A stretch of 64,000 nt of DNA from NCBI GenBank assembly GCA_017609915.1, contig JAFCDA010000001.1, forward strand, positions 5,033-69,032, given 5' to 3'. Below are positions 10,830-38,028 of this stretch, piece by piece. Origin of the DNA: Candidatus Pacearchaeota archaeon (lineage in GTDB: Archaea; Nanobdellota; Nanobdellia; Pacearchaeales; GW2011-AR1). The translations under genes and the position numbers were made by a program. The first letter of the stretch is position 1. The number at the start of each line of letters is the position of its first letter. The notes under the pieces are model-generated. The model had not been told where the DNA came from. It ran no database searches and saw only the letters and a list, made by a program, of their open reading frames with translations.

Positions 10830-10830
10830 A

Positions 10831-11592: not shown

Positions 11593-11665
11593 TTTTTTAT
11601 TGATTAGATTTAATTAAATATAATGACTATTTAAAGATTATTATGTTTAGATATAGATGAATCAT

Positions 11666-13442: not shown

Positions 13443-15155
13443 TCACATTCTCTTTTTTAACAAATTGTCTCTGATTAATAAATAATTTCTTCTCAAAAAA
13501 TCTAATTTTTCATAATGATAAACTTCTATTTTGTATAAAAAACTTGTAATCCAAAACTGCATTCCGCATTTTCTACATGGCAACATAAATTGGTAACGAA
13601 ATTTGTTTTTAATTAAACAATTTTCATACTGAATTTTTTCATGGCAAAAAGGACATTTAACCTTAACCCTGTATCTATCTTTATTTGTTTTTTTAATTTT
13701 GAGGGGAATAACATAACGAGCATATTTTCTTCTTGCATCTACTATATCTTTTTTTAATTTCAGAATTTCATTATCTGTCATTTTATCAGTCATATTTATC
13801 CAATTAGTATGGGCTATTTTGTTTTTAATAAAAGATAATTTATCTTTAATAATTCCTTTTTTAATACAATGGTGATAAATAGCACTTCCAGGATATGGTT
13901 GAATAAATCCTATTCTAATTGAAGAATCTAAAGGAATATAACCAATGCCTTTTGTTATTTTTTTCCAATAATTAAGAGTTTTATAAGCAGTTTCTTTTGT
14001 TTCAGCAACATCTCCAAAAATAAAATTTCCTTGAATACCTATACCTACTTCTCTTGAAAGTTTTATAACATTATCAATTTGTTGAGGGGTTATTGGTTTT
14101 TTCATACTTTTAAGTACTTTTTCACTATAACTTTCAAAACCAAAACCAACAACAGTACATCCTGCATCTTTTAATGTTTTTAATAATTTTTTATCTACTC
14201 CAGCCACTACTAGTTGACAAGTCCATTTAATTTTCCAAGGTGTGTTTTTAATAAGTTTTTTTATTTTTTTACAAAACTCATATACTCTTTCTTTATTAAC
14301 TGAAAATAAATCATCATAAATTTCAATAGCATTGATTTTATATTTTTTTATTGCTATTTCAAGTTCTTTAATAACTGAATCAATTTGCCTTTCCCTATAT
14401 TTTCTTCCAATACTATGATAACAAAAAGTGCATTGAAAAGCACACCCTCTGCTGGCAAGTATTGGGTAAGACCTTGGATAATCAAATTCTCCATAGAGAA
14501 AATAAGAATTACTTTGATTTTTTAATTTTTCTTCATATCCAAATCCTTCAAAATCTGGCAAAGGCAAGGAATCTAAATCCATTATAAGCTCTCTTGGTTT
14601 TGTGAAAAAAGGTTTTTTATTTTTTGGTTTTGTGAAAAAAGGTTTTTTATTTTTTATATAACCTATTCCATTTATTTTGCTTAAGTTTCTTTTTTTTTCT
14701 AAACATTTTAATAACTCGATTATTGTTGTTTCTCCTTCACCAACTACTACAAAATCTGGGTGTAATGATTTAAGCATTAATTCTGGTTCGCTTGTTATTA
14801 ATGCTCCTCCCACAATAGTTTTTGGTTTAGAAGGATGATTTTTAGCTGCTTTTAATATTTTCTCTATTACCACATAACCTATTCCAGTATGTCCTGAACA
14901 AACAATATCATATTTCTTTTTATTTAATTGTCGAAAAACTAATTCTTCTGTTTTTCCATTTAAATGATTTAAATTTAGGCAATCTACATCATATTTTGCT
15001 TTTTTTAAAACAGCAGAAATATAACCCAATCCTAAAGGAAAATTATACTGATAATTTGTTTTATTGCTCAAATTATATCTTGGAATTACAAGCAATATTT
15101 TCATATTTTCTTTTGTATTTTTTTTAGTGTGTTTTATTAATTTTTGTTTTATCAT
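13443..15155 (-). CDS. B12-binding domain radical SAM protein with C-terminal zinc ribbon
   Basis: Cobalamin-binding N-domain, ASRGCAFQCTFCYHS radical SAM motif, C-terminal CPFCHEK...CRKC; contains in-frame 30-bp tandem duplication. Confidence 0.8.
   Translation of the reverse strand: MIKQKLIKHTKKNTKENMKILLVIPRYNLSNKTNYQYNFPLGLGYISAVLKKAKYDVDCLNLNHLNGKTEELVFRQLNKKKYDIVCSGHTGIGYVVIEKILKAAKNHPSKPKTIVGGALITSEPELMLKSLHPDFVVVGEGETTIIELLKCLEKKRNLSKINGIGYIKNKKPFFTKPKNKKPFFTKPRELIMDLDSLPLPDFEGFGYEEKLKNQSNSYFLYGEFDYPRSYPILASRGCAFQCTFCYHSIGRKYRERQIDSVIKELEIAIKKYKINAIEIYDDLFSVNKERVYEFCKKIKKLIKNTPWKIKWTCQLVVAGVDKKLLKTLKDAGCTVVGFGFESYSEKVLKSMKKPITPQQIDNVIKLSREVGIGIQGNFIFGDVAETKETAYKTLNYWKKITKGIGYIPLDSSIRIGFIQPYPGSAIYHHCIKKGIIKDKLSFIKNKIAHTNWINMTDKMTDNEILKLKKDIVDARRKYARYVIPLKIKKTNKDRYRVKVKCPFCHEKIQYENCLIKNKFRYQFMLPCRKCGMQFWITSFLYKIEVYHYEKLDFLRRNYLLIRDNLLKKRM
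14596..14655 (-). repeat. perfect 2 x 30-bp tandem duplication inside CDS (encodes KKPFFTKPKN twice)
   Basis: ggttttgtgaaaaaaggttttttatttttt repeated head-to-tail at 14596-14625 and 14626-14655. Confidence 0.9.
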
Positions 15156-21051: not shown

Positions 21052-22473
21052 ATGAAAAAAGTGATATTAATGTATCCTAATTGTAGGTGGAAAAAAGGGT
21101 TTGAAAATAAAACCATATGGAACCTTCATCCTTATAATCTTTGTTTACTTTCTGCAATGATAGAACAAGATTATGAAACTAAAATAGTAGATACTAATAT
21201 TGATGATATATCTAAAGAAGATTTTGTAAAGATTATAGAAGAATATAAACCAGATATAGTTGGAATTTCAGTTCTTACAAATGAATATTTAGATTCTGGT
21301 TTAATTGCTGCAGAAATAGTTAAATCAATAAATTCTGAAATAAAAACAGTTATAGGAGGGGTTGCAACTTTTGATCCTGAATCTATAATTAAAAATGAAA
21401 ACATTGATTATGTTGTAGTGGGTGAAGGAGAATTTACTTTTAAAAAATTATGTAATCATATTTTTAGTGATGGAGATTTGCCATCTAAAGGCCTTGTTTT
21501 TAAAAAAGATGGAGAAATAATAAATCTTGGTCGTTCAGATTTTATAGAAGATTTAGATAGTCTTCCTTTTCCATCATATGATAAAGTTGATTATTTAAAA
21601 TATGCTAATTCAATTCAAAGAGAAAGTGTAGATAGCCCAAGAGAAATGCCTTATGCAAACATAATAACATCAAGAGGCTGTCCTTATAATTGTTGTTTTT
21701 GCCAGGCTGGAAAAATTTCTGGTAAAAAACCAAGGTTTCGTAGTGTAGAAAATATTCTTAAGGAAATTAGTTGGTTAAAAGAAAAATATGGAATAAAAGC
21801 TCTTATTTTTGATGATGATAATCTTCTTGTTGATAAAGAAAGAGCTAAAAATTTATTTAGGGGAATGATTGATAGAGGATTTAATCTAAAATGGAATGCT
21901 ATTGCTATGGCTGCATTTAAATTAGACGAAGAAATGATAGATTTAATGAAAAAAAGTGGATGTCAATATGTAGATATTGCTATTGAATCAGGTGTTGAAA
22001 GAGTACTTCATGATATTATTCATAAACCTTTAAATTTAGAACATGCAAGAGAAGTTCGAGATTTATTAAAAAAATATGAGATTGATTTTGCTGCAAATTT
22101 TATTATGGGATTTCCAGGAGAAACCTGGGATGAAATTAGAAAAACAATTAAATTTGCAGAAGAATTTGATGCAGATTATACTAAAATATTTATTGCAACA
22201 CCTTTACCAAACACAGAATTATATGAAGTTGCCAGAGAAAAAGGTTATTTAAAAGAAAATTTTAGTTTTGATAAACACTTATGGACTGATGGATGGATAG
22301 AAACTGAAGAATTTCGTCCAGAAGATCTAAAAATCTTAAGGGCATATGAATGGGATAGGATAAATTTCTCAAGCCCAGAAAAAATAAAAAAAATTATCTC
22401 TATGATGGACATTAGTGTAGAAAGACTTAATGAGATAAGAAAAAATACACGCAAGAGGGCAAACCCTCAATAA
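21052..22473 (+). CDS. B12-binding domain radical SAM protein
   Basis: Cobalamin-binding N-domain (VILMYPN...VGISVLT..GG) then SRGCPYNCCFCQAG radical SAM motif. Confidence 0.8.
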   Translation: MKKVILMYPNCRWKKGFENKTIWNLHPYNLCLLSAMIEQDYETKIVDTNIDDISKEDFVKIIEEYKPDIVGISVLTNEYLDSGLIAAEIVKSINSEIKTVIGGVATFDPESIIKNENIDYVVVGEGEFTFKKLCNHIFSDGDLPSKGLVFKKDGEIINLGRSDFIEDLDSLPFPSYDKVDYLKYANSIQRESVDSPREMPYANIITSRGCPYNCCFCQAGKISGKKPRFRSVENILKEISWLKEKYGIKALIFDDDNLLVDKERAKNLFRGMIDRGFNLKWNAIAMAAFKLDEEMIDLMKKSGCQYVDIAIESGVERVLHDIIHKPLNLEHAREVRDLLKKYEIDFAANFIMGFPGETWDEIRKTIKFAEEFDADYTKIFIATPLPNTELYEVAREKGYLKENFSFDKHLWTDGWIETEEFRPEDLKILRAYEWDRINFSSPEKIKKIISMMDISVERLNEIRKNTRKRANPQ

Positions 22474-22483
22474 ACTTTATAAA

Positions 22484-23134
22484 ATGAGTCCAAATTTAAA
22501 AAATCTTTCAGATGAAGAAAAAGAAATTAAGATGATTGAGTTTGTAAAAGAGATTGTTGAATTATGGGAAGCTGCAAAAATACCTTATCCTATTCATTTT
22601 AGTGGGGGAAATGAAAAAGAATTAATTAAAATCTTTTCTGAAATTAAAGAAGGAGATTATGTTTTTTCTACGCATAGGGGGCATTATCATTATTTATTAA
22701 AAGGTGGAGATTTTGAAAAGTTAAAAGAATTTATTTTAAGAGGAGATAGTATGCATATTTTTGATAAAGATTTAAAATTTCTTACATCTGCTATTGTTGC
22801 TGGAACTCCCTCTATTGCTGCAGGAGTTGCTTATGCTTTAAAAAAGAAAAATAGTGAAAATAAAGTATGGTGTTTTATTGGAGATGGGGCAGAAGATGAA
22901 GGGCATTTTTATGAAGCAGTTAGGTATGTTGATGGATGGGATTTGCCATGCACATTTATTATAGAAGATAATGATCGGTCTGTTGAAACTCCAAAAAGTG
23001 AAAGATATGGAAAATCTCAAATTCAGTGGCCATCATGTGTTAGAAGATATATGTACAAGCCAAAATATCCTCATGTAGCAACTGAAAATTGGGTTGATTT
23101 TTCAGGAATGAAAGCTGGAGGTCCTTCTTTTTAA
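22484..23134 (+). CDS. thiamine-diphosphate enzyme E1-alpha-like PP-domain protein (truncated, 216 aa)
   Basis: STHRGHYHYLLKG (YRxHG-like) and TPP-binding IGDGAEDEGHFYEAV...FIIEDNDRS (GDG-x-NN-like); stop overlaps next start (TAATG). Confidence 0.6.
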   Translation: MSPNLKNLSDEEKEIKMIEFVKEIVELWEAAKIPYPIHFSGGNEKELIKIFSEIKEGDYVFSTHRGHYHYLLKGGDFEKLKEFILRGDSMHIFDKDLKFLTSAIVAGTPSIAAGVAYALKKKNSENKVWCFIGDGAEDEGHFYEAVRYVDGWDLPCTFIIEDNDRSVETPKSERYGKSQIQWPSCVRRYMYKPKYPHVATENWVDFSGMKAGGPSF

Positions 23135-24774
23135 TGAAATATAAAGAATTAATTAGTGAAGAAATGAAAAAATTAGCAAAAAATGATAAAACTGTCTTTA
23201 TAGGATATAATATTAAAAGAGGTTCAAAAGCTTATGGGACCTTAACAGATGTTCAAGATAAATGTATTGAAATGCCCCTTGCAGAAAATTTAATGACAAG
23301 TTTTGCTATTGGCATGTCTTTAGAAGGCTATAAACCAGTAGTTTTCTTTGAGAGACAAGATTTTATTTTAAATGCCTTAGACTCTATTGTTAATCATTTA
23401 GATAAAATTAAAGAAATGTCTAAAGGAGAATTTGAAACTCCTATAATAATCAGAGCCCCTGTAGGCGGCAAAAAACCTTTAGATCCTGGGATGCAGCATA
23501 CTCAAGATTTTAGTGAGGTATTGAAAAAAATTATTAAATTTCCAGTTTATGAATTAAAAACTGAAGAAGATTTTGCTAATTATTCTAAAATTATTCAAAA
23601 TATAAAAGAACCAACCCTTTTTATAGAGTATAAGGACCTTTATGGAAAAGAAATTGAGCAAAAAGAAAAAATAATTCTTGATAGTCATAAATTAATCTGG
23701 CATACAGAAAGAGTTAATGCATGGTTAAGAGGAGAAAGAATTGCTCCTATAACAATAGATTGCGCATTAACCAGGAGATGTAATTATAGATGTACTTATT
23801 GTTATGGACAATTACAAGCAAATGATGAAAAAAAGATGACTTTAGAGGTAATTCAAAGATTTTTAAAAGATGCTTCTGAAATAGGGGTAAAAGCTGTAAG
23901 TTTTGTAAGTGATGGAGAAAGTTCATGCTCTCCTCATCTTTATGATTCAATAATTTATGGGAAAAAACAAGGACTAGATATGGCTCTTGGAACAAATGGG
24001 TCTTTGCTTAAAAAAGAAGGGCTTAAAGAAGCAATAGAGTGCTTAACCTATCTTAGATTTAATATTTCTGCTGGAGAAAAAGAACGATATAAAGAAATAC
24101 ATGGATGTTCTGATTTAGATTATGATAAAACAATTGAAAATATTAAAGAATGTGTAAAAATAAAAAAAGAAAATAATTTAGATGTTACAATTGGTTTACA
24201 AATGGTTCTCATGTCTGAATTTAAAGACCAAATAATTCCTTTAACAAAATTAGGAAAAGAACTAGGAGTTGATTATTTAGTTATTAAACATTGTAGTGAT
24301 GATGAAGAAGGTAGTTTAGGAATAGATTATGATAAATATTTTGATAAAGATTTAATTGAAAAAATAAAAGAAGCTGAATCTTATTCAGATGAAAATTACT
24401 TAGTTAAAGCAAAATGGTCAAAAATCTTAAGTGGGGGAAAAAGAAATTATTCACGATGTTTTGGACCTCCTTTTATCTTACAGATGTCTGGTTCTGGATT
24501 AGTTGCTCCTTGCGGAATGTTTTTTAATGATAAATATGAAAAATATCATATTGGAAATATAGCTGAAAAATCTTTTAAAGAGATTTGGGAAAGCGATAGA
24601 TATTGGGAAGTTATGGATTTAATTGCTTCTGAAGATTTTGATGCAAAAACAATGTGTGGAACTTTATGCTTGCAGCATAAAGTAAATGAATATCTCTGGG
24701 ATTTAAAAGATAAAGGGGTAACTAATATAGATGTACCAGAAGGAGAAGCTCCAATGCATCTTAATTTTATTTGA
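23134..24774 (+). CDS. fusion protein: E1-beta/transketolase Pyr-domain-like N-terminus + radical SAM/SPASM domain
   Basis: N-terminal ~190 aa match E1-beta Pyr domain (CIEMPLAENLMTSFAIGMSLEGYKPVVFF...IIRAPVGG); then CALTRRCNYRCTYCYG radical SAM and C-terminal Cys-rich SPASM-like region (CFGPPF...APCG). Confidence 0.7.
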   Translation: MKYKELISEEMKKLAKNDKTVFIGYNIKRGSKAYGTLTDVQDKCIEMPLAENLMTSFAIGMSLEGYKPVVFFERQDFILNALDSIVNHLDKIKEMSKGEFETPIIIRAPVGGKKPLDPGMQHTQDFSEVLKKIIKFPVYELKTEEDFANYSKIIQNIKEPTLFIEYKDLYGKEIEQKEKIILDSHKLIWHTERVNAWLRGERIAPITIDCALTRRCNYRCTYCYGQLQANDEKKMTLEVIQRFLKDASEIGVKAVSFVSDGESSCSPHLYDSIIYGKKQGLDMALGTNGSLLKKEGLKEAIECLTYLRFNISAGEKERYKEIHGCSDLDYDKTIENIKECVKIKKENNLDVTIGLQMVLMSEFKDQIIPLTKLGKELGVDYLVIKHCSDDEEGSLGIDYDKYFDKDLIEKIKEAESYSDENYLVKAKWSKILSGGKRNYSRCFGPPFILQMSGSGLVAPCGMFFNDKYEKYHIGNIAEKSFKEIWESDRYWEVMDLIASEDFDAKTMCGTLCLQHKVNEYLWDLKDKGVTNIDVPEGEAPMHLNFI

Positions 24775-24938
24775 ATAAAAAATAATCTTAAAATATTAAA
24801 AGGTAACTAAATAATATCCATATCTTGATAAGAATAACGAGTGAGAAAAAGATTTGTAAAGCTTTAAAATGAGTAGAGATTCAAGATGGTTTGCATAACT
24901 TAAAGATATAATAAGATTCCAGTAAATAATATAAAAAA

Positions 24939-25997
24939 ATGGCAGTAGATAGTAAAATTGACGGGCATAAATTAATCCTGCATCCAAAAAGGGTGGCTGA
25001 ATGGAAAGAAAAAGGAGATTGTTATCCAATATATATTGAGATAGGTCCTACAAATATATGTAATCATAGATGTATTTTTTGTGCTTTAGATTATCTTGGA
25101 CATGAAGGATTTAATATAGACACAGAACTTATGATTAATACCTTAAAAGAAATCGGGGAAAAGGGTGTTAAATCTATAATGTTTGCCGGAGAAGGAGAAC
25201 CTCTTGCGCATAAAGATATTGGATTATTTGTTCAAACAGCAAAACAATCTGGAATAGATGTTTCTATTACAACAAATGGGGTATTATTTAATAAAGAAAA
25301 AGCAGAACAATTTCTTCATCATTTATCTTGGATAAGGTTTAGTATTGATGCTGGAACTTCTGAAACTTATAATAAAGTTCATAGAGGGGGAGAAAATGAT
25401 TTTAACAAAGTTATAGAAAACATAAAAAATGCTGTTGAAATTAAAAAAGCAAAAAATCTAAACACTGTGATTGGAATTCAGTTTTTAATGATTCCTGATA
25501 ATCTAAATGATGTTCTTAAACTTGCTCAAATAGCAAAAGATATTGGGGCAGATAATTTGCAAATAAAACCTTATTCTCAGCATCCAAAAAGTGAAAATAG
25601 TTTAGTACTATATTATGAAGATTATGCGCATTTAGAAAAAGAACTTGAAAAGTTTAATTCACCTGATTTTAAAATCTTCTTTAGAAAACAGACAATGCAA
25701 AGAGTTGAACAAGGAATCAATTATTCTGGATGTCATGGGCTTCCATTTTTTGCTCTAATAGATGCAAAAGGAAACATAATTCCATGCAATCTTTTTTATG
25801 ATATTCCAGAATTTACATATGGAAATTTACATGAAAACAGTTTTTCAGAAATTTGGAAAAGTGAAAAAAGACAACAAGTTTTACAAAGAATAAGAGAAAA
25901 AGGAATTGAAGATTGCAGACATGCATGTAGATTAGATGTTATTAACAGATATTTACAAAGATTAAAAAATCCTCAATCACATGATAATTTTGTGTGA
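24939..25997 (+). CDS. radical SAM/SPASM domain protein (paralog of C-terminal half of preceding gene)
   Basis: IEIGPTNICNHRCIFCALDY radical SAM motif; C-terminal GCHGLPFFALIDAKGNIIPCNLFYD..ENSFSEIWKSE parallels SPASM region of 23134..24774. Confidence 0.8.
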   Translation: MAVDSKIDGHKLILHPKRVAEWKEKGDCYPIYIEIGPTNICNHRCIFCALDYLGHEGFNIDTELMINTLKEIGEKGVKSIMFAGEGEPLAHKDIGLFVQTAKQSGIDVSITTNGVLFNKEKAEQFLHHLSWIRFSIDAGTSETYNKVHRGGENDFNKVIENIKNAVEIKKAKNLNTVIGIQFLMIPDNLNDVLKLAQIAKDIGADNLQIKPYSQHPKSENSLVLYYEDYAHLEKELEKFNSPDFKIFFRKQTMQRVEQGINYSGCHGLPFFALIDAKGNIIPCNLFYDIPEFTYGNLHENSFSEIWKSEKRQQVLQRIREKGIEDCRHACRLDVINRYLQRLKNPQSHDNFV

Positions 25998-26067: not shown

Positions 26068-27015
26068 ATGATGAATAAAGTATTAATTATAAAAACTGGG
26101 TATTCTGAGGTTTTAGATAGAAGAAATAATTCAAGAGTAGTAAGTTTTGGAGATGTATTAAGAACAACTCCATTATTACATCTTTATAAAGACAATCATA
26201 TAACTTGGGTCACAGATGAAAAAGCGATTCCATTACTTAAACACAACCATTTAATTAATCGTCTACTCGTTTTAGATTTTATTTCAATATCTCAATTACA
26301 AACAGAAGAATTTGATGTTGTGATAAATCTTGAAAAAATTCCTGGAATATGTGCACTTGCAGACAAAATAAGAGCAAGAAGAAATAGATATGGATTTACT
26401 TTTAATAGTCAAACTGGAGAAGCAGAAGCATATGATAAATCCCATGATATCCTTAGCCTGAGTACAAATCAAGAATTAAAAAGAAGTAATAAAAAAACTG
26501 CCCAAGAACTTTTATTTGAAATAGTTGGGGAAGAATGGAAAGGGGAAGAATATGTTCTTGGATATCAACCTAAAACAGAGGAAAAATACACTGTTGGTTT
26601 AAACAGCATTGTAGGACTTAAATGGCCAACTAAAGCCTGGCCAGCAGAAAATTGGGATGAATTAACTGAAATATTAAAAAATGGAGGGATAGTAGTAAGC
26701 AGACAAGACCAACAACCTAAAGAAACATTAACAGACCTCTTTAAGTATATGGATTGGATAAATTCTTGTAAATTAATTGTTAGCAATGATAGTCTTGGAA
26801 TGCATTTGGGAATAGCATTAAAGAAAAAAATTTTAGGATTATTTGGAGCAACATCTCCTTATGAAGTGCATTTTTATGGTGATGGAAAACCAATTATGCC
26901 AAATCCTATCCCAAGTTGTTTACCTTGTTTTAGAGGTTCTTGTGAAAGAAGAAAAAATTGTATAAATGAGATTACTCCTGAAAAAGTATATCAAGAGATT
27001 AGGAAGCTTATATAA
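26068..27015 (+). CDS. GT9 family glycosyltransferase (heptosyltransferase-like) with C-terminal Cys4 motif
   Basis: KVLIIKTGYSEVLDRR...FGDVLRTTPLLH GT9 N-terminus; C-terminal CLPCFRGSCERRKNC. Confidence 0.65.
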   Translation: MMNKVLIIKTGYSEVLDRRNNSRVVSFGDVLRTTPLLHLYKDNHITWVTDEKAIPLLKHNHLINRLLVLDFISISQLQTEEFDVVINLEKIPGICALADKIRARRNRYGFTFNSQTGEAEAYDKSHDILSLSTNQELKRSNKKTAQELLFEIVGEEWKGEEYVLGYQPKTEEKYTVGLNSIVGLKWPTKAWPAENWDELTEILKNGGIVVSRQDQQPKETLTDLFKYMDWINSCKLIVSNDSLGMHLGIALKKKILGLFGATSPYEVHFYGDGKPIMPNPIPSCLPCFRGSCERRKNCINEITPEKVYQEIRKLI

Positions 27016-27066: not shown

Positions 27067-28032
27067 ATGAATAAAAAAGATTTAGAAACATATGGTTCTG
27101 GTTTATTAGATTTTCATACTCATTCAACTTTCTCTGATGGGGGAGATACCCCAACACAACTTGTAGAAAGAGCTAAAAAACAGGGGGTTACTGCAATGGC
27201 TTTAACAGACCATCATGGTCATAAAGGATTACCTGAATTTATAGCTGCATGTAAGCAATATGATATATTTCCAATACCTTTTGGAGTTGAAATTGCTGCA
27301 GAACTTCCTGAAAAAGTTTTAACACCACAAGATATGTCTTCTCCTGATTTAATTATTCTTGGAAAAAATCCAAATGTAAAACCTATGAAAGGATATCAAG
27401 AAATATATTTTAATGATTTGGAAAAAAGGCATTTACCTGAAATATTAGCTGGATTAAGAAAGGTTGGTTTTGAATTACCTGTTGTAAATCTAAAAGAACA
27501 ATGTGCTTCTTTTCATGCTCCTCCAGATATACTTCATGATTTTGTTCATTATAAAAAAAATATGCAAGTTTTAAAAAATTATGTTAAAACAAAGGATTCA
27601 AATGTTAGTGATGCAGACATTGAAAAAAAACCAATAGCATTTGCTAATAGATGGTTATATGCTGTAGGTATGCCTGCTTATACAGCAAGATTTAAAGGTT
27701 TTAGCCTTGATAGTGCACTTCAATTAGTTGAAGAGATGAACTGTAAACTATTTATTGCACACCCTGGAGGAGATTATGGGTTTTTAACAGATGCTATGTT
27801 AAATTATTTTACTGAGAAGAAAATCCATGGAATTGAGATAAGAAGTTATCTTAACAGCCCTGAACAAAATGCTAAATTTGATAAATTAGCTAAAGAACAC
27901 AATCTAATAAGATCTGGAGGTTCTGATTGTCATGGTGCCAAGGGGCCTTTTAGAATGGGAATATATGATCGTCCACAAAATCAACTTCCTAAAGATGTTT
28001 TAGAAGAGCTTATGGACTGGTTGCCTTCTTAA
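27067..28032 (+). CDS. PHP domain metal-dependent phosphoesterase
   Basis: LDFHTHSTFSDGGDTPTQLVERAKKQGVTAMALTDHH PHP motif I/II. Confidence 0.7.
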   Translation: MNKKDLETYGSGLLDFHTHSTFSDGGDTPTQLVERAKKQGVTAMALTDHHGHKGLPEFIAACKQYDIFPIPFGVEIAAELPEKVLTPQDMSSPDLIILGKNPNVKPMKGYQEIYFNDLEKRHLPEILAGLRKVGFELPVVNLKEQCASFHAPPDILHDFVHYKKNMQVLKNYVKTKDSNVSDADIEKKPIAFANRWLYAVGMPAYTARFKGFSLDSALQLVEEMNCKLFIAHPGGDYGFLTDAMLNYFTEKKIHGIEIRSYLNSPEQNAKFDKLAKEHNLIRSGGSDCHGAKGPFRMGIYDRPQNQLPKDVLEELMDWLPS

Positions 28033-28224: not shown

Positions 28225-29136
28225 ATGGACCCAATACAAATCCCTCAAGGTTACAATTATATATCTGCATTTTTAACAATGAGATGCAATCTTAATTGTA
28301 GTTTTTGCTTAAATTCAATTGACAAAAGCAGAGAATTTAATAGGACAAAATTTAAAGAGCTTTCTGGAGAGCAATGGGTTAAAGCATTAAATAGGATTGA
28401 ATCACGTCCAGAAGTTCCAGTAACCTTTTCAGGAGGAGAGCCTTTTTTACATCCAGATTTTCTTTATATCCTTAAGAATCTTAAAAAAGATTTAAACATA
28501 GATATTTTAACTAATTTATCTTTTGAAGTAGCTGTTGAAAAATTTTTAAAAGAAATAGACCCAGAAAGAATAAAGAGAAATGTTCCTTATGCTTGTATTC
28601 GTGTTTCTTATCATCCAGAACAAATGGGAAATGGTGCAGAACTTATTGAAACAGTTAAAAAACTAAAAGATGCTGGATTTAGTATTGGTGTATGGAGTGT
28701 TTTATATCCTTCTTTTGAAAATCTCTCTGCAATAAATCAAATGCAATTTAGATGTATAGATGCAGGAATTGATTTTAGATTAAAAGAATATACTGGAACC
28801 TATAAGGGAGACTTATATGGAGATTATTCTAAATATTCTAACTCAGTTTTATCAAATAAATTAAAAAAATGCTTATGTAAGGGCTCTGAATTATTAATAG
28901 CTCCAAATGGAAATATTTACAAATGTCACAGTGATTTATTTAGTGAAGAATTTCCTATAGGAAATATTCTTGACCCTAATTTCCAAATTAAAAACGAATT
29001 TAGAAAATGTGAGAAATATGGTCAGTGCCATCCATGTGATGTAAAACTTAAGACAAATTATAAACAAGAATTAGGGAATACCTCTGTTGAAATAAAAGAA
29101 ATAGAAGATAATTCTCAACCGAAAGTTATAGTTTAA
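28225..29136 (+). CDS. radical SAM protein with SPASM-like C-terminal Cys cluster
   Basis: ISAFLTMRCNLNCSFCLNS CxxxCxxC motif; C-terminal CKGSELLIAPNGNIYKCHSD...CEKYGQCHPCD. Confidence 0.75.
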   Translation: MDPIQIPQGYNYISAFLTMRCNLNCSFCLNSIDKSREFNRTKFKELSGEQWVKALNRIESRPEVPVTFSGGEPFLHPDFLYILKNLKKDLNIDILTNLSFEVAVEKFLKEIDPERIKRNVPYACIRVSYHPEQMGNGAELIETVKKLKDAGFSIGVWSVLYPSFENLSAINQMQFRCIDAGIDFRLKEYTGTYKGDLYGDYSKYSNSVLSNKLKKCLCKGSELLIAPNGNIYKCHSDLFSEEFPIGNILDPNFQIKNEFRKCEKYGQCHPCDVKLKTNYKQELGNTSVEIKEIEDNSQPKVIV

Positions 29137-29223: not shown

Positions 29224-30840
29224 TTAAAATGTTTTTTTTATAGATTTTTTAACTAATTTTAAATCCTTAAATAATTTTTTTATAACTGATTTTATCACCA
29301 TTAAATCCTCTTTATCAAGAGAATGTGAAATAATTATTAAAGACAAGTAAAGTAAAATAAACAAAGAGGTTAAAATTATAATTGAAAAAACATTAATTGT
29401 AACTTTTTCTATTAAATAAAATAAAACTCCTGTTGGGATTATTGAAACTAAGATTATAGTAAACATCTTTCTTTTTAAAGGTATAAATGAAAGATGTTTT
29501 TTTGTTTGTATAATCAAAAGGGTATTTAAAAAGATTATAGATAAAACAGTTGCAAGAGAAGCTCCGATTAAACCATTTGAATTATCTAAAGAAAACAAAA
29601 CAGGTATTGGAACTAATATTGAATTTAATATTAAATTAACAATTGCAGATATAGATATATTAAACAAGATTAACTTAGATTTACCTAACATTGAAATAAG
29701 ATTTGTTGAAATCATAAATAATGCAGAAATAAATGTTCCAATTAGCAAAAATTTAAGGGCAATTTGTGCAATAACATATTGACTTCCAAAAAGGATATTT
29801 AATGATGCTCCTGAAAAAAAGAATATTAAAATAAAAATTGGAAGAATTGCCATAAATATCCATTTATTTACTTGTTTACTAAGCTGTTTGATTAAAGCAT
29901 TATTTTTTGCAGAATATTGTCTTGTTATAAGTGGAAAAAATAACTGCATAAATAATTGTGGGACAATCATTATAAGCATTGCAATTGGCACAGCTGCATT
30001 ATAAAACCCAACTTCTACTGCAGATTTATAATAACCTAAAGAAATAGTATCAATCCAATGAAAAATAATAGATATAGCTGCAAAAAATAATAATGGCCAG
30101 GAATATTGAAAAAACTCTTTACTAATCTTTGAATAATCTTTTTTCTCATAAGAACCAAAGATTTTATTTATTTTATTTTTACAAACTAAATAAGCAGCAA
30201 ATAATGTAAGAATTGAACCAGATATGTAAGACCAAACAACAGCATTTCCTCCTGAATTAAAACCTATGAAAATAAGAATTATAAGCACACCTACACGGAC
30301 TAAATTTTGAAAAATATTAAAAATAAAAGAATACCATCCAATCTTTTCAAACCCTCTAAGCACTGTGAGAAATATACTTGCAAGCATTACAGCAAGAATT
30401 GAAAAACTCATTATTTTTAGAAAAATAGAAAGGCTTGGATTATGAAATATTTGTATTGAAATAAAATCTGATAAACCAATTAAAACTATTGAAGCAATTA
30501 TCCCAGAGATTAAATAAAATCTCAGTGTTTTTCTAAATAAATACCTCATCTCATTAATCTTTTTTCTCTCTCTTAATAATGGGACAAATCTTAATAATCC
30601 ATCTACAAAACCAAAAGAAGCAATTGTGATAAAAAGAGGGATTACAGATAAAACAAGAGAAAATAATCCATAAATTTCTGGGCCATAATAACGAGCAATA
30701 ATTATCCTATAAGCATACATTAAAACTTTTGATAAAAAAAGTCCAATAAAAACAATAAAAGAAGATTTCATAATTAGTTTAAGAGATTTATTAAGCTGAT
30801 TTTCTCTTGTAATATGTTCCTGATTTTTCAAATGTTCCAT
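29224..30840 (-). CDS. polysaccharide/oligosaccharide flippase (MOP/Wzx family)
   Basis: 538 aa, about 14 TM helices, MATE-like Wzx architecture, located in glycan locus. Confidence 0.65.
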   Translation of the reverse strand: MEHLKNQEHITRENQLNKSLKLIMKSSFIVFIGLFLSKVLMYAYRIIIARYYGPEIYGLFSLVLSVIPLFITIASFGFVDGLLRFVPLLRERKKINEMRYLFRKTLRFYLISGIIASIVLIGLSDFISIQIFHNPSLSIFLKIMSFSILAVMLASIFLTVLRGFEKIGWYSFIFNIFQNLVRVGVLIILIFIGFNSGGNAVVWSYISGSILTLFAAYLVCKNKINKIFGSYEKKDYSKISKEFFQYSWPLLFFAAISIIFHWIDTISLGYYKSAVEVGFYNAAVPIAMLIMIVPQLFMQLFFPLITRQYSAKNNALIKQLSKQVNKWIFMAILPIFILIFFFSGASLNILFGSQYVIAQIALKFLLIGTFISALFMISTNLISMLGKSKLILFNISISAIVNLILNSILVPIPVLFSLDNSNGLIGASLATVLSIIFLNTLLIIQTKKHLSFIPLKRKMFTIILVSIIPTGVLFYLIEKVTINVFSIIILTSLFILLYLSLIIISHSLDKEDLMVIKSVIKKLFKDLKLVKKSIKKTF

Positions 30841-31556: not shown

Positions 31557-33062
31557 TTAATCTCTCAAAATCTTTTTTACCATTTCTGAGAATGCAGGAC
31601 GAGTAATAAATACTCCTGCTGAGATTCCAATTATTGTTGTGATTGCAAATCCTTTTAATAAACCTGCTCCTGCCCACATAAGAGGAAGCAAAGCAAATAA
31701 TGTAGTTACATATGTTCCTAAAATAATAAACAAAGCTCTTTTAATTCTCTGTTTTAATGAAAGAATATGACTCATTTGAGATTCATCTAAGATAATTATT
31801 TGTGAATCAACCCCTGTTCCAATTGCTGCTATAATTCCTGCAATTGCTGGTAAATCTAAATTTCTTTTAAATAATGCTGAAATTCCTAAAATTATTAAAA
31901 CTTCACACAAACTTGTTAATAAAACTGCTAAAGATAATTTTATTTTTCTATATCTTAAAAAAATCATTAAACCTACTGCAAGAATTGCAGCAGCTCCTGC
32001 AATTAAAATTGTGTTAATAAATTTTTTCCCAAGTAATGGAGAAATTGTATCTAATTTTTCTATTTGTAATTTAAAAGGTAGAGAGCCTGTTTTTAGAACT
32101 GTTTGTAATCTATTCATCTCAATTTTAGTATTTTCTATTGCTTCATTCCTTGTTTCTCCAGACCCAGATCCGCTAATTTGAATCTGAGTTGTTGTACTCC
32201 CCCTCAATCCTTCAGAAATAGATAAAGAACTAAATAATTCATCATCTAAATATAAATCTATTTTTTTATCTAATGATTGTGGATTTTCAGGGTCTAATCC
32301 CAACCCTTTTGTTATCTTTGCAAATCTTTCTGCAGCTTCTGGGCTTAAGGTTATTCCAAATCTAAAGTTACAAAATTCTTCTTCTTGAGTGGTTCTACAA
32401 TCATAAATTCCTGCCTGTTCTCCTGTTTTTGCAACATAAGTTATATCCCTATTCCCACCAATAAATACAGTTTTGTTTCCGATTTTTGCTTCAAATTTTC
32501 CTTGTTGAGAAATTAAATTTCCAAGTTCTTCACGGGTTGAACCAGCTATTTCAATTAACATATAATTATTTCCAGAAAGGTCTGTAACAGGCCTAATTAT
32601 AATATCTTTTAGTCCATAAACATTTAATCTCTGGCTTGTTATGTCTATAAGATCTTGCAACTCCTGAACATTTAATTTTTTATCCTTAGCTACAACTAAT
32701 GCTCTTGATCCACCTGATAAATCTAATCCTGTTTTGATTCTTGTTTTATCTATATTTGCAACACTTATTTGTGGAGCTTTATTTGTAAATAAAATAAATT
32801 CTCCTTTTTTAGTTGTTATTGTTATTTTTTGATTTTCACTTAAAAAAACTTTTGAATTAATTATTTCTTTATAATCTTCAAAACTTAATATTTTTTGCCC
32901 ATCAATATGGGTAATTATCTGTCCTTGCCTTAATCCTTGTTCATAAGCTGTTGAATTTTGTTCTATTGAAATAATTTCAACTCCTTTTTCAAAATTTAAA
33001 GGAACCATAGCTAATATAGAACCTAAAACTACAAATATTAATAACCAAATTTTCCAGTTCAT
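31557..33062 (-). CDS. secD: protein-export membrane protein SecD
   Basis: N-terminal TM, large periplasmic-type domain, C-terminal six-TM SecD/SecF domain (LAVLLTSLCEVLIILGISALF...IAGIIAAIGTGVDSQIII). Confidence 0.8.
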   Translation of the reverse strand: MNWKIWLLIFVVLGSILAMVPLNFEKGVEIISIEQNSTAYEQGLRQGQIITHIDGQKILSFEDYKEIINSKVFLSENQKITITTKKGEFILFTNKAPQISVANIDKTRIKTGLDLSGGSRALVVAKDKKLNVQELQDLIDITSQRLNVYGLKDIIIRPVTDLSGNNYMLIEIAGSTREELGNLISQQGKFEAKIGNKTVFIGGNRDITYVAKTGEQAGIYDCRTTQEEEFCNFRFGITLSPEAAERFAKITKGLGLDPENPQSLDKKIDLYLDDELFSSLSISEGLRGSTTTQIQISGSGSGETRNEAIENTKIEMNRLQTVLKTGSLPFKLQIEKLDTISPLLGKKFINTILIAGAAAILAVGLMIFLRYRKIKLSLAVLLTSLCEVLIILGISALFKRNLDLPAIAGIIAAIGTGVDSQIIILDESQMSHILSLKQRIKRALFIILGTYVTTLFALLPLMWAGAGLLKGFAITTIIGISAGVFITRPAFSEMVKKILRD

Positions 33063-33106
33063 TTTTTGTTTTTCATTTTTATTTAATTTTTAATTATCTT
33101 ATATCC

Positions 33107-33150
33107 TTAATCTTCTCATCTGAATCTCGTTCTATGCTTATAAGATATTA
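33107..33150 (-). promoter_or_regulatory. copy of 44-nt promoter module upstream of secD
   Basis: cttaatcttctcatctgaatctcgttctatgcttataagatatt. Confidence 0.45.
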
Positions 33151-33168
33151 ATTATTTTCCTCCATAAT

Positions 33169-34122
33169 TTAATCCCTCTCCTTCTTTTCCAAATACCATT
33201 TTAATATTGAAGCATTTGTAATCCATGTATTAAGAATATCAAAACCTAAACCAATTAACAAGATAGTGAATATTTGTTTTAAAACAGGTGAAAATGATTG
33301 AGTGATAATTAAAGCTACACTAAGTGCAATTATAGAAGTTAGAGTCATTGTTATCCCTGTTTTAAATGCATCTTTAAGTTTTGTGTTTATTTGCCCTTGT
33401 CTTTTTAATAGACGTGTTGTAAGCATAATATCAGTATCTACACTATAACCAATTAACATTAAAAATGCAATAATTCCTGCACTTGAAACTCTTATTCCTA
33501 ATATATTTACTAAAGCTAAAGTCATCATAATATCTGCAAAAGCAGAAAGAACAACTGCCATACTTGGTGCAAAAGTTCTAAAAATAATAAAAACAACTAT
33601 TGCCATTAAAATAAAAGATATTAAAATTGCAAATTGTAATTGTTTGTAAAAAGACTCTCCTAAAGTTGAGCCTGTTGAGACCACGCTTGAATTTTCACTT
33701 GTTAAGTCATAACCTAAGAAATCTTCTATTGAAGAAGTTATGGTTTTATACTCTTCAGAAGTTGATTCTATTGGAATTTCAATAATAATTGCTTCTTGTT
33801 TTCCTGTTCTAAAATTAGATAGTTCTCTGATATTAAAATCATCTATTTTCTGAGATAATCTGTTTGTTAAATCATTTATATTTATTTCTTCTTGTTCAGA
33901 AAAAATAGTTATTGTTGTTCCTCCTGTTAAAGAAACATCTCTTTTTATGAAGTCGTTGTTTTGCTGGTGGAAATATGCTATATAACCTAATGATAGGATT
34001 AATAAAATTAAGGGGATTAAAAGTAGTAACTTATAGTTTTTATTATAAAATTTTAGGGCTTTTCTTCCTAATTTCTTTTCTTCTTGTTCTATTTCATTGA
34101 GGATGTTGTTTTCTTGTTCCAT
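33169..34122 (-). CDS. secF: protein-export membrane protein SecF
   Basis: VSLTGGTTITIF motif and C-terminal SecD/SecF TM bundle; start set at MEQENN (34122) rather than track start 34182, which would overlap the conserved leader motif. Confidence 0.75.
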   Translation of the reverse strand: MEQENNILNEIEQEEKKLGRKALKFYNKNYKLLLLIPLILLILSLGYIAYFHQQNNDFIKRDVSLTGGTTITIFSEQEEININDLTNRLSQKIDDFNIRELSNFRTGKQEAIIIEIPIESTSEEYKTITSSIEDFLGYDLTSENSSVVSTGSTLGESFYKQLQFAILISFILMAIVVFIIFRTFAPSMAVVLSAFADIMMTLALVNILGIRVSSAGIIAFLMLIGYSVDTDIMLTTRLLKRQGQINTKLKDAFKTGITMTLTSIIALSVALIITQSFSPVLKQIFTILLIGLGFDILNTWITNASILKWYLEKKERD

Positions 34123-34172
34123 ATTTTGTTTTATCTGGTATCTTAATATCTTAAGCTGAATTGATGAGTGGC

Positions 34173-34197
34173 AAGGGTACATCCCTTCCGTAACCCT
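34173..34197 (-). promoter_or_regulatory. second copy of conserved 5' leader hairpin motif, upstream of secF
   Basis: aagggtacatcccttccgtaaccct versus aagggcacatcccttccgtaaccct at 2159-2183. Confidence 0.5.
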
Positions 34198-35223: not shown

Positions 35224-35225
35224 AA

Positions 35226-37982: not shown

Positions 37983-38014
37983 AATATCAGATTAAAAACT
38001 AATATCTTGATTGA

Positions 38015-38028
38015 GCTTATAAAATATA
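38015..38028 (+). promoter_or_regulatory. TATA box 22 nt upstream of VTC gene ATG
   Basis: gcttataaaatata; 23-nt block tcttgattgagcttataaaatat duplicated at 29202-29224. Confidence 0.4.

Follow-up and report, generated by a model that had tools for sequence, protein, structure and literature searches.

The window, that is, the whole stretch of 64,000 nucleotides analysed here, carries three consecutive genes on the forward strand at 22484..23134, 23134..24774, and 24939..25997. The first encodes a minimal E1-alpha-type ThDP (PP-domain) subunit of 216 aa. The second encodes a fusion protein of 546 aa in which, according to Pfam, an E1-beta pyrimidine-binding (Pyr) domain lacking the TK_C domain of a normal E1-beta (residues 1-175, 23134..23658) is joined through a linker, the KEIEQKEK region (23659..23682), to a radical SAM core and an auxiliary domain (residues 184-546, 23683..24774), together called rSAM_B. 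The third encodes a separate protein paralogous to rSAM_B, called rSAM_A (352 aa; Pfam Radical_SAM 9.9e-24, SPASM 1.1e-9). Further genes on the same strand accompany these three. A B12-binding radical SAM gene (21052..22473; Pfam B12-binding 3.6e-21, Radical_SAM 6.3e-28) has its stop codon 10 nt upstream of the alpha gene, and its top NCBIfam matches, HpnJ and P-methyltransferase, are both far under the cut-offs. Downstream are a GT9 (heptosyltransferase-family) glycosyltransferase (26068..27015; Glyco_transf_9 2.8e-16), a PHP-domain phosphoesterase that may be a companion (27067..28032; PHP 5.1e-14), and rSAM_C, a third, more distant radical SAM/SPASM-type protein (28225..29136; Radical_SAM 6.1e-13) that shares only 24% identity with rSAM_B. 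The window contains two GT9 genes; a search of it for kinase, nucleotidyltransferase, and SIS genes found none, and no heptose-activation genes, GmhA or HldE among them, are present.

The preliminary description had called the alpha subunit a truncated E1-alpha-like protein. Its E1-alpha affinity holds (Pfam E1_dh, 8e-20; NCBIfam PDH E1-alpha, 1.5e-25), although the E1_dh match spans only profile positions 7-172 of 300 and the C-terminal third of E1-alpha is absent. The protein is nevertheless not truncated but minimal by design, since it is a member of a large family in which every one of the best 120 clusters matching it is 204-249 aa long and its AF2 model is a complete domain (pLDDT 91.2, pTM 0.89). 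The ThDP-Mg binding motif GDG...N, read from the sequence (G133-N163, 22880..22972; GDG at residues 133-135, 22880-22888, and N163 at 22970-22972), shows no variation among the E1-type alphas (28/28) of the module described below or in the 54-sequence alignment A5, and from such motifs we assume that the minimal alpha is active.

The stop codon of the alpha gene (TAA, 23132-23134) and the start codon of the fusion gene (ATG, 23134-23136) have one A in common, forming the TAATG overlap noted earlier. The proposed N-terminal Pyr domain was recovered by domain search as Transket_pyr over residues 2-171 (3.6e-10), with matches to E1-beta in NCBIfam (2.3e-18) and the PDB (5.9e-12), and Glu51 of beta is kept in 29/29 sequences; the two genes thus encode a split E1 alpha/beta pair, as had been suggested. 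After a linker of about 10 residues, Radical_SAM matches residues 212-363 (1.8e-16), including C216-x3-C220-x2-C223 (23779-23802), and SPASM matches residues 442-509 (1e-7). In the AF2 model of the fusion (pLDDT 87.5, pTM 0.66), each domain is confident, residues 176-180 are disordered (pLDDT <50), and the docking of Pyr on rSAM is without confidence.

The beta-rSAM_B fusion is genuine and not an artefact. The frame runs uninterrupted from the Pyr half to the rSAM half, and no ATG, GTG, or TTG from which a separate rSAM could start is available at the junction. The same fusion, sought in other genomes as the preliminary description had proposed, is present in 11 other 90%-identity clusters (P0002-P0012; 60-69% identical) whose junctions and linkers differ in length and sequence; P0002 shows it in each of two independent assemblies, and P0012 is a triple fusion of alpha, beta, and rSAM_B. 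The A-rich junction does contain A5 and A6 runs, and the related locus L089 has a frameshifted alpha gene and no rSAM_B. In view of these observations on the fusion, and with every catalytic motif intact and both domains modelled with high confidence, a frameshift error or decay of the genes is nevertheless an extremely improbable origin. L010 is an unfused relative in which, at the point equivalent to the junction, the stop codon of the Pyr gene and the start codon of rSAM_B share an ATGA, and in the tree the fused proteins are intermingled with unfused ones. The fusion is a lineage-specific, minority form, found in a DPANN clade, of a widespread unfused module.

rSAM_A aligns end to end with the rSAM_B half (31% identity, E 3e-57), which bears out their description as paralogs. 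Its conserved cysteines are C41/C45/C48 and C265/C283/C326/C330, and rSAM_B has the CX3CX2C motif and four auxiliary cysteines in 80/80 sequences, along with an extra conserved Cys387. The radical SAM assignment made earlier therefore stands, but the SPASM-like assignment does not extend to a 7-Cys SPASM arrangement: because only four cysteines of the C-terminal domain are invariant, it fits a single, twitch-like auxiliary cluster in proteins of the rSAM_A/rSAM_B type. They have two signatures in common, DxHKLxxHxxRVxxW at the N-terminal end and HxNF(I/V) at the C-terminal end, and rSAM_B is 58-77% identical across domains of life. Among solved structures, BlsE and DesII have the folds closest to that of the rSAM half. 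A profile search of the PDB reaches both from rSAM_A (1.8e-12 and 6.7e-10, respectively), and the sequence similarity of rSAM_B to them in a profile search is weak (DesII 5e-4, BlsE 2e-3). Neither paralog reached any NCBIfam family, and our literature search for a ThDP-radical SAM fusion or module found no published description, in line with the earlier remark that the architecture was unfamiliar. The fusion reveals an undescribed enzyme set that occurs across many microbial phyla.

Conservation of this set was assessed in 60 species-level loci anchored on rSAM_B that have enough flanking sequence, with neighbours counted within 6 kb. A ThDP alpha gene is near rSAM_B in 53/60 loci, a Pyr gene in 51/60, and rSAM_A in 42/60. 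The alphas are E1-like in 27 loci and split-transketolase-like in 26, and the two types never occur together within 6 kb. Reverse sampling by the minimal alpha or beta gene returned three loci, two with rSAM_A, alpha, beta, and an overlapping rSAM_B, and one a degraded copy. Parts of the module are also joined in other ways, as beta+GT2 (L020), GT2+rSAM_B (P0025, L077), and beta+SDR (P0276); together with alpha+beta+rSAM_B and beta+rSAM_B, these form a gene-fusion network that links the parts and that we counted in favour of the module. Homologs of the companion genes recur as well. The B12-binding radical SAM gene and rSAM_C have counterparts inside the module of L010, L083, L087, and L088, the former also within 6 kb of rSAM_B in 14/60 loci, and a GT9 homolog adjoins the module in L010, L083, and L089. 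The position of the PHP gene is taken elsewhere by NUDIX (L010 and A. oryzae, directly downstream of rSAM_B) or HD (L083) phosphohydrolases.

The genomic context is that of a nucleotide-sugar pathway, and the sugar locus of the preliminary description is confirmed. Neighbours among the 60 loci include GT2 (35), HldE-like (26), SDR (23), GmhA-like SIS (19), DegT (15), and GT9 (14) genes, and L011 encodes a LegB-type 4,6-dehydratase scoring over the NCBIfam cut-off. The module is present in Azospirillum and Desulfobacterota. Azospirillum oryzae KACC 14407 encodes its E1 alpha/beta pair as HUE56_RS00825/RS00820 and rSAM_B as HUE56_RS00800, and A. oryzae has no rSAM_A at all. In A. oryzae, L011, and the P0012 contig, SDR dehydratases could provide a keto sugar, so the roles of the radical SAM enzymes may be less fixed there.

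The domain content of beta changes with its position. A Pyr-only beta ends less than 150 nt upstream of rSAM_B in 23/28 cases, in contrast to 0/35 for full-length betas (Fisher p 1e-12 overall, with loci uncorrected for phylogeny). The effect is significant inside the E1 and TK lineages separately, likewise uncorrected for phylogeny, and TK_C is also lost in most TK-type betas of the module.

We consider these three genes the core of a conserved four-protein sugar-tailoring module (rSAM_A, ThDP-alpha, ThDP-beta, and rSAM_B) whose probable function is the transfer of a C2 unit to an activated sugar. ThDP-mediated C2 addition coupled to radical steps is, judging from the sequences, the best reading, at a probability of roughly 0.55. 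It is favoured by the use of E1-type or split-transketolase-type pairs, lineages known or proposed to carry out acetyl or hydroxyacetyl C2 branching of keto sugars (PMC12247030), by co-occurrence with heptose-activation, SDR, NUDIX, and glycosyltransferase genes, and by the proximity of the rSAM fold to DesII and BlsE. The comparative evidence thus leans toward the branching of a nucleotide sugar raised in the preliminary description, still unproven, while the rearrangement offered beside it gains no specific support. The architecture, the intact motifs, the genuine fusion, the conservation of the module, and the fold affinities are observed, whereas the identity of donor and acceptor, the sequence of steps, and a physical complex are what we infer. 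The PP domain of alpha and the Pyr domain of beta would form a pared-down ThDP active site, which, being E1-type here, would decarboxylate pyruvate to hydroxyethyl-ThDP. This C2 acyl-anion equivalent would then be added to a carbonyl carbon of the activated sugar, giving a branch or a chain extension. The acceptor would be nucleoside-diphosphate-linked and, in most lineages, probably heptose-derived. The two one-auxiliary-cluster radical SAM paralogs may act before and after the addition: through oxidation of the DesII/BtrN type or dehydration of the AprD4 type, one most likely turns an unactivated sugar carbon into the carbonyl or deoxy-keto acceptor, and the other would work on the branched product. 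rSAM_B may dock at the former site of the lost TK_C domain, and the DPANN-clade fusion would let a labile keto-sugar intermediate move directly between both active sites. The product would pass to the neighbouring GT9/GT2 glycosyltransferases and a Wzx flippase and become part of a cell-surface glycan.

The ThDP pair might instead act upstream on sugar phosphates, like transketolase or DXS, with its product, sedoheptulose-7-phosphate or a 1-deoxy-ketose phosphate, feeding a GmhA/HldE heptose pathway, the radical SAM enzymes acting later and independently, and the fusion being no more than a side effect of neighbouring operon genes whose stop and start codons overlap. Common neighbours do include GmhA-like and HldE-like genes, the transketolase histidines are kept in TK-type alphas, and TK-type betas retain residues that we assign, by position, to H473 and R520 of E. 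coli. The fusion would also be mutationally cheap, because the unfused genes overlap by 4 nt, and the interleaving of fused and unfused forms in the tree fits this origin. We nevertheless regard such precursor supply as unlikely. An E1-type enzyme using pyruvate would yield a 1-deoxy ketose that GmhA could not isomerise, yet SIS/HldE genes are present at E1-type loci as at TK-type loci. The window, L010, and L083 have the ThDP pair and the radical SAM enzymes but no SIS or kinase. Moreover, TK_C loss tracks rSAM_B adjacency in two independent ThDP lineages, and the enzymes to which beta is also fused, SDR and GT2, are expected to act on nucleotide-activated sugars.

Two further alternatives would couple the ThDP and radical chemistries directly. 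A 5'-deoxyadenosyl radical on rSAM_B could take hydrogen from an unactivated sugar carbon, and, in an active site common to both cofactors, the sugar radical could couple directly with the ThDP-bound enamine (Breslow intermediate), a one-electron acylation needing no carbonyl acceptor, with the auxiliary cluster accepting the extra electron. The repeated covalent fusion of beta to rSAM_B in the TK_C position, the unusually high conservation of rSAM_B, its one auxiliary cluster with the extra Cys387, and the absence of an obvious keto-sugar-making dehydratase from many loci are all compatible with this. We know of no natural precedent, however, which counts against it, as do the unconfident docking in the AF2 model, full-length E1 alpha/beta pairs that can be as much as about 4 kb away from rSAM_B, frequently separated from it by a GT2 gene, and the SDR dehydratases in 23/60 loci; this hybrid is quite improbable. 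Alternatively, the minimal pair could oxidise pyruvate (or a ketol) as pyruvate:ferredoxin oxidoreductase (PFOR) does and feed the radical SAM cluster with electrons relayed by the auxiliary cluster, a private reductant in organisms of reduced metabolism. PFOR is built on homologous PP and Pyr domains, and the partner fused to the ThDP domain here has two FeS clusters, with TK_C, which binds E2 in dehydrogenase complexes, and the C-terminal third of E1-alpha both absent. Auxiliary clusters are able to relay electrons that reactivate a radical SAM cluster (PMC10470005). But the conserved cysteines of the ThDP subunits, which we take to be ordinary E1 positions such as 'LPC', form no FeS-binding motif, and hosts such as Azospirillum and Desulfobacterota are expected to own general ferredoxin or flavodoxin systems. 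Full-length E1 pairs also serve in the module, as do transketolase-type pairs with their ketol-binding histidines retained, and it is to rSAM_B, not to other radical SAM genes of the locus, that the ThDP pair is linked. A dedicated electron donor is very doubtful.

Among known systems, the ADP-heptose pathway (GmhA, HldE, GmhB, GT9) resembles the module in its frequent GmhA-like SIS, HldE-like, and GT9 neighbours, although the known pathway has no ThDP or radical SAM step, the window has GT9 but neither GmhA nor HldE, and the module's HldE-like proteins score under the family cut-offs and have their domains in the opposite order to the E. coli-type HldE model. A parallel to the two-carbon reading is found in the actinomycete 'alpha-KADH2' enzymes, including KbDH-alpha/beta (kibdelomycin) and those of aldgamycin, paulomycin, avilamycin, and trioxacarcin, which transfer a presumed pyruvate-derived C2 unit to a sugar carbonyl, C2 branching by KbDH-alpha/beta having been demonstrated in vitro (PMC12247030). 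Like the present pair, these are two-subunit E1 alpha/beta ThDP enzymes encoded within sugar-biosynthesis clusters, and in L011 and A. oryzae this place in the module is taken by full-length E1 alpha/beta genes. Unlike the actinomycete enzymes, the window's pair has a 216-aa alpha and a Pyr-only beta with a radical SAM enzyme fused to it. The module further differs in its two dedicated twitch-type radical SAM paralogs, its likely heptose-derived acceptor, and its setting, since it belongs to loci for surface glycans in uncultured anaerobes and in DPANN archaea rather than to Streptomyces secondary metabolism.

The split-gene transketolases of miharamycin and amipurimycin, for which hydroxyacetyl branching of a keto sugar has been proposed, are known from Streptomyces only, with none characterised in vitro and no radical SAM partner mentioned (PMC12247030). 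Split TK-type pairs, likewise in sugar clusters, occupy the same position in 26/53 module loci, although most of their betas have lost TK_C and the window's own pair is E1-type. For the radical SAM half, the relevant comparisons are DesII, a TDP-4-amino-4,6-dideoxyglucose deaminase/dehydrogenase, and BlsE, a cytosylglucuronate decarboxylase, both of which act on nucleoside- or nucleotide-linked sugars. They share only 14-15% identity with it in structural alignments; rSAM_A is far under both NCBIfam cut-offs, neither model is among the best 25 for rSAM_B, and the DxHKLxxHxxRVxxW and HxNF(I/V) signatures are rSAM_A/rSAM_B's own. To our knowledge, neither enzyme associates with a ThDP enzyme. 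BtrN and other twitch-domain dehydrogenases have, as proposed for rSAM_A and rSAM_B, one auxiliary [4Fe-4S] cluster bound by four cysteines in a shortened SPASM ('twitch') domain, and BtrN's twitch region aligns with the C-terminus of rSAM_B. The reaction of BtrN, conversion of a secondary alcohol of a cyclitol to a ketone, is of the type that making the acceptor would require.

The three ORFs at the core of the locus lie on the plus strand at 22484-23134, 23134-24774 and 24939-25997, just where the preliminary description had placed them, and the TAATG overlap between the first stop and the next start reads at 23132-23136. The first ORF is indeed E1-alpha-like, as that description had it: its 216-aa product (alpha) matches Pfam E1_dh at 8e-20, above the gathering score, and NCBIfam PDH E1-alpha at 1.5e-25, and it carries the intact ThDP-Mg motif GDG-x(~27)-N (GDG at residues 133-135, N163), which is kept in 28/28 sequences. 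It is not a full-length E1-alpha (PF00676/TIGR03182), since only positions 7-172 of the 300 in the E1_dh profile are matched and the NCBIfam score of 89.8 is well under the cut-off of 393.85. Standard E1-alpha subunits are ~320-370 aa, the C-terminal part comprising loops and the His for reductive acylation of lipoyl-E2. The view of alpha as a truncated protein has to be given up, because the short length is conserved in the 120 best-matching clusters (all 204-249 aa) and AF2 models alpha as a complete, compact single domain (pLDDT 91.2, pTM 0.89). Most of the best 120 matches to the beta subunit are ~173-181 aa. This reduced ThDP form (alpha ~210 aa, beta ~175 aa) is a large and well-conserved family; at ~210 + 175 aa it is the smallest E1-type ThDP heterodimer of which we know, and it may be of interest to biocatalysis.

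The second ORF encodes a 546-aa fusion protein. Its N-terminal part is a TPP pyrimidine-binding (Pyr) domain, as had been proposed, with Transket_pyr covering residues 2-171 (3.6e-10) and further matches to NCBIfam E1-beta (2.3e-18) and to PDB E1-beta chains (to 5.9e-12). The glutamate that activates the ThDP aminopyrimidine is present as E51, kept in 29/29 sequences of the E1 type. The C-terminal Transketolase_C domain (TK_C), which is the E2-binding domain of E1-beta, is missing: the fusion has no PF02780 match, and a radical SAM domain follows after residue 180. Long E1-beta relatives within the same module do carry TK_C. The predicted radical SAM half (rSAM_B) is borne out by Radical_SAM at residues 212-363 (Pfam 1.8e-16) and by CNYRCTYC at 23779-23802; a SPASM-model match spans residues 442-509, and the fold of this half agrees with known radical SAM structures. 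Conserved Cys in the ThDP subunits were considered as FeS ligands and dismissed as what look like ordinary E1 positions. The fusion and alpha were modelled separately. In the fusion, both domains are confident in AF2 (mean pLDDT 87.5), and the linker is disordered, with a pTM of only 0.66, so that the model leaves the domain orientation loose. An alignment for the triple fusion P0012 was dropped; MAFFT had placed its alpha rows partly at the N-terminus and partly in the radical SAM region, because one sequence alone bridges them.

The same fusion is found elsewhere. A check that had been suggested, a protein search with the whole fusion (546 aa), returned 11 other 90%-identity clusters combining Pyr and radical SAM domains. 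These fused relatives are 546-577 aa with 65-69% identity to the window fusion, apart from P0012 (802 aa), in which E1-alpha is fused on too (alpha+beta+rSAM_B); the linkers range from ~10 to ~45 residues. One cluster, P0002, is fused in two independent assemblies with identical neighbours. The window junction reads KDLYGKEIEQKEKIILDSHKL, with both halves in one frame, and no ATG, GTG or TTG for a separate radical SAM start is present there. That the junction is A-rich would suit a frameshift artefact (or a pseudogene), but the 11 further fused clusters, the two P0002 assemblies and the continuous frame without an alternative start make this very unlikely, and we set it aside. In an archaeal contig of 375 kb (L010), the module is unfused and the Pyr gene (174 aa) overlaps the rSAM_B gene (371 aa) as ATGA. 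In a neighbour-joining tree, all 12 fused proteins and 16 unfused ones intermingle within a single 28-member clade, which is that of the minimal E1 subunits. The fused state has probably toggled more than once, as read from a weakly resolved tree.

The third ORF encodes a 352-aa protein with radical SAM and SPASM domains (rSAM_A; Pfam Radical_SAM 9.9e-24). It had been called a paralog of the radical SAM half of the fusion, and the two align end to end at 31% identity (E 3e-57). The CX3CX2C motif, which in the radical SAM superfamily (PF04055) holds the SAM-cleaving [4Fe-4S] cluster within a partial TIM barrel, is kept in 80/80 rSAM_B (C216/C220/C223) and 50/51 rSAM_A sequences (C41/C45/C48), and both families share an N-terminal DxHKLxxHxxRVxxW and, at the extreme C-terminus, a nearly invariant HxNF(I/V). 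Enzymes of the SPASM subgroup have a seven-Cys motif and two auxiliary [4Fe-4S] clusters, and the twitch domain is a shortened version with four Cys. The twitch domain houses one auxiliary cluster and SPASM two (PMC10470005). The earlier label of a SPASM-like domain stands insofar as the Pfam SPASM match is above threshold, but the seven-Cys motif is absent and exactly four C-terminal Cys are invariant in each family (C442, C460, C508 and C512 in rSAM_B; C265, C283, C326 and C330 in rSAM_A), with the same CX17C...CX3C spacing. With exactly four auxiliary Cys, a single cluster fits better than the two of a full SPASM domain, and the auxiliary domains of both proteins therefore appear twitch-like by sequence. 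The C-terminus of rSAM_B also aligned with the twitch region of BtrN at E 2.6e-4. A fifth conserved Cys of rSAM_B, C387 (24292-24294) in "KHCSDDE", is kept in 78/80 sequences and is lacking in rSAM_A.

Neither radical SAM protein reaches any NCBIfam family, the best match, W_rSAM_matur, being far under its cut-off. For rSAM_A, the scores against DesII (TIGR04426; 47.4 vs. a cut-off of 450) and BlsE (TIGR04466; 54.6 vs. 400) fall short, and neither model is among the 25 best NCBIfam matches of rSAM_B; the likeness to these two enzymes is one of fold only. Foldseek of the fusion model ranks DesII at the top (2.8e-14), then SkfB, SuiB, anSME and BlsE. In profile searches of PDB sequences, BlsE, MoaA, CteB and DesII lead for rSAM_A, and MoaA, SkfB, PqqE, BtrN (twitch region) and DesII for rSAM_B. 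These affinities, distant as they are, indicate that the substrates are sugars linked to a nucleoside or nucleotide. They are compatible with a keto sugar being made by radical-based dehydration or oxidation, and do not fix the reaction. A third radical SAM protein of the window, rSAM_C (28225-29136), is only distantly related to rSAM_B.

The radical SAM half of the fusion shares 72-77% identity with stand-alone proteins of ~367 aa, and rSAM_B is present at 52-74% identity in many groups of the one-genome-per-species contigs. Its bacterial hosts include Omnitrophota, Elusimicrobia, Nitrospirota, Desulfobacterota, Planctomycetota (including anammox), Campylobacterota (Sulfurimonas), Lachnospiraceae, Patescibacteria and Dehalococcoidia, and its archaeal hosts Nano-/Woesearchaeota, Methanosarcinales and Thermoplasmatota; Azospirillum and Pacearchaeota also host the module. 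We screened 80 rSAM_B loci by tblastn with proteins of the window and of the related locus L003, and counted genes within 6 kb of rSAM_B in the 60 loci with at least 4.5 kb upstream of it. A ThDP alpha subunit is present in 53/60, a Pyr-domain gene in 51, the rSAM_A paralog in 42 and a small GT2 in 35, followed by an HldE-like kinase/nucleotidyltransferase (26), SDR (23), GmhA-like SIS (19) and DegT (15), with GT9, rSAM_C and B12-rSAM in 14 each. The commonest order is rSAM_A, alpha, beta, [GT2], rSAM_B. Reverse sampling set out from a minimal alpha or beta protein in each of three groups (Phycisphaerae, Erysipelotrichia, Firestonebacteria); the module is intact in two of the three loci and degraded in the third. 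In the Firestonebacteria MAG (L089), the minimal alpha is split by a frameshift (6239-6996) and rSAM_B is missing, with rSAM_A, Pyr and GT2 remaining; this is either a decaying copy or an assembly error. In 13-14 of the 60 loci, rSAM_B is followed by two consecutive ~160-176-aa proteins that match neither Pfam nor NCBIfam (e.g., L003 9813-10868 and L011 11084-12087); the window lacks both. A 41%-identity rSAM_B relative on plasmid pDCAR1 of Solidesulfovibrio carbinolicus (L086, 8959-10056) lies in a different glycan locus beside methyltransferases and a TIGR04372 glycosyltransferase, with no ThDP genes; we set this distant paralog aside as uninformative on the module, and the wider radical SAM family is thus not always linked to ThDP genes.

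Two types of ThDP pair alternate in the module, E1-like in 27 loci and split-transketolase-like (TK) in 26, and they never occur together within 6 kb. The best match is transketolase for the L003 alpha (1.8e-61) and PDH E1-alpha for that of the window; TK-type alphas keep the transketolase histidines, and the cofactor-activating Glu of TK-type betas (E56) is kept in 35/35. Full-length E1 subunits (343 + 345 aa, the beta with TK_C) occupy the slot in Elusimicrobia (L011) and Azospirillum oryzae. The parts are tied together by independent gene fusions: beta+rSAM_B in the window clade, alpha+beta+rSAM_B (P0012), full-length beta+GT2 (L020), GT2+rSAM_B (P0025, L077) and beta+SDR (P0276). A Pyr-only beta ends <150 nt upstream of rSAM_B in 23/28 loci and a full-length beta in 0/35 (Fisher p, kinship ignored: 1e-12 overall, 3e-4 in the E1 lineage, 1.6e-5 in TK). 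Seen in each of two separate ThDP lineages, this pattern suggests a replacement of TK_C by rSAM_B, of which the window fusion is the literal form.

The window itself is a glycan locus of 25-30% GC, whose proteins have their closest homologs labelled Nano-, Pace- or Woesearchaeota. The idea of a sugar locus agrees with its GT2, GT9, DegT, SDR and Wzx genes, and related loci additionally carry HldE, SIS, SDR and NUDIX genes. Upstream of the core are SDR, DegT, FkbM methyltransferase and GT2 genes and a B12-rSAM (21052-22473, plus strand); downstream are a GT9 (26068-27015, plus strand), a PHP phosphoesterase (27067-28032), rSAM_C and a Wzx-type flippase (29224-30840, minus strand). With two further B12-binding radical SAM genes (6493-8037 and 13443-15155, both minus strand), six radical SAM genes lie in ~23 kb. 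A second GT9 of the 'heptosyltransferase' family is encoded at 2561-3676 (minus strand), so that an apparent DPANN archaeon has two such genes without GmhA or HldE in the window. Among the glycosyltransferases are also a nucleoside 2-deoxyribosyltransferase-like gene (3673-4080, minus strand) and a QueC (7-cyano-7-deazaguanine synthase) gene (5345-6037, plus strand). Genes at 9414-12874, beside the glycan genes, encode a type I phosphodiesterase/AlkP-like protein (plus strand), a PAPS-reductase-like protein and a sulfatase (both minus strand); they could be a sign that sulfated glycans are made or turned over here. At 34540-38736 lies a trio of DUF4956, a 918-aa CotH-kinase/beta-helix protein and a VTC-domain protein. 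PDZ-SecD and SecF (31557-34182, minus strand) flank the Wzx end here and in the 190-kb P0012 contig, so synteny reaches beyond the module.

A plasmid search identified rSAM_B at 58% identity in A. oryzae KACC 14407 (plasmid NZ_CP054615.1), where HUE56_RS00800 is rSAM_B and HUE56_RS00825/RS00820 are E1 alpha/beta. The operon there runs SDR, SDR, HldE-like, SIS, SDR, full-length E1-alpha and E1-beta, two DegT aminotransferases, a hypothetical protein, rSAM_B and NUDIX, followed by glycosyltransferase genes. In the archaeal L010, too, the gene right after rSAM_B is NUDIX, in favour of a nucleoside-diphosphate-linked substrate. In A. oryzae the operon lacks rSAM_A and has SDRs able to make a keto group, so the roles of the radical SAM enzymes may differ between lineages. 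The phosphohydrolase near rSAM_B varies, being PHP in the window (27067-28032), NUDIX in L010 (11055-11513) and A. oryzae (L085, 13091-13666), and HD in L083 (10209-10886); the switch of family may be a non-orthologous replacement in one pathway step.

Alongside the observed architecture, intact motifs, conserved module and fold affinities, we infer, with a probability of roughly 0.55, that the ThDP heterodimer would add a C2 unit to the carbonyl of an activated sugar, while the twitch-type radical SAM enzymes, with rSAM_B physically attached to beta, would generate the acceptor, process the product, or do both. For the E1 type present here, the C2 unit would be an acetyl equivalent from pyruvate; the sugar acceptor, the order of the steps and the formation of a complex are likewise putative. 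It is conceivable that the ThDP pair instead acts ahead of GmhA and supplies it with a ketose phosphate as precursor. GmhA-like and HldE-like genes accompany rSAM_B in 19/60 and 26/60 related loci, but the window differs from an ADP-heptose locus in having neither, and tblastn at a relaxed threshold (E 1e-2) identified no GmhA, HldE or nucleotidyltransferase in its 64 kb; we regard this alternative as unlikely.

A slim chance belongs to a natural radical/ThDP hybrid. Here the Breslow intermediate on ThDP would directly acylate a sugar radical made by the radical SAM enzyme, the two meeting in a composite active site. Given rSAM_B at the former place of TK_C, one-electron chemistry could conceivably form a C-C bond to an unactivated carbon of the sugar, and it is equally doubtful that the chemistry of the module is itself unprecedented. 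To our knowledge, such one-electron ThDP C-C chemistry is so far confined to engineered or photo-driven ThDP enzymes. Slimmer still is the chance that the pair oxidizes pyruvate as a private electron donor for the radical SAM enzyme.

The preliminary description did not recognize the architecture as a described one, and no description of the module was found in a non-exhaustive literature search, with most subscription journals outside it. The ingredients are each of a known kind, ThDP C2-branching enzymes and sugar-modifying radical SAM enzymes. As far as our searches show, it is new that the two are obligately paired, that alpha and beta are reduced to a minimal form, that a radical SAM enzyme replaces TK_C, and that the module is widespread among DPANN archaea and uncultured anaerobes, in their surface-glycan loci. 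It would be the first ThDP sugar C2-branching enzyme of which we know to depend on radical SAM partners, and rSAM_A and rSAM_B represent two new radical SAM families. If our reading is correct, the enzyme module brought to light by a DPANN gene fusion is conserved across >10 bacterial phyla and several archaeal lineages. ThDP C2 branching, so far tied to a few antibiotic pathways of Streptomyces, would then reach the primary cell-surface glycans of a large share of uncultured anaerobes. A cultured Azospirillum strain carries the module, which makes the question directly testable.

In C2-branching clusters, the keto-sugar acceptor normally comes from an NDP-sugar 4,6-dehydratase. The window SDR at 16750-17823 matches dTDP-glucose 4,6-dehydratase at 5.5e-40, with a score of 137 vs. 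a cut-off of 365, and the radical SAM enzymes may stand in place of the keto-sugar-generating dehydratase. In the known systems, E1-type "alpha-KADH2" pairs attach pyruvate-derived acetyl branches to keto sugars, as in aldgamycin, kibdelomycin (KbDH-alpha/beta, with in vitro proof), paulomycin, avilamycin and trioxacarcin, and split-gene transketolases are proposed to carry out hydroxyacetyl branching in miharamycin and amipurimycin (2025 review, PMC12247030). The window likewise has an E1 pair inside a sugar cluster, and the two ThDP lineages that alternate in the module are the same two that are tied to C2 addition to sugar carbonyls, which is the strongest argument for its function.
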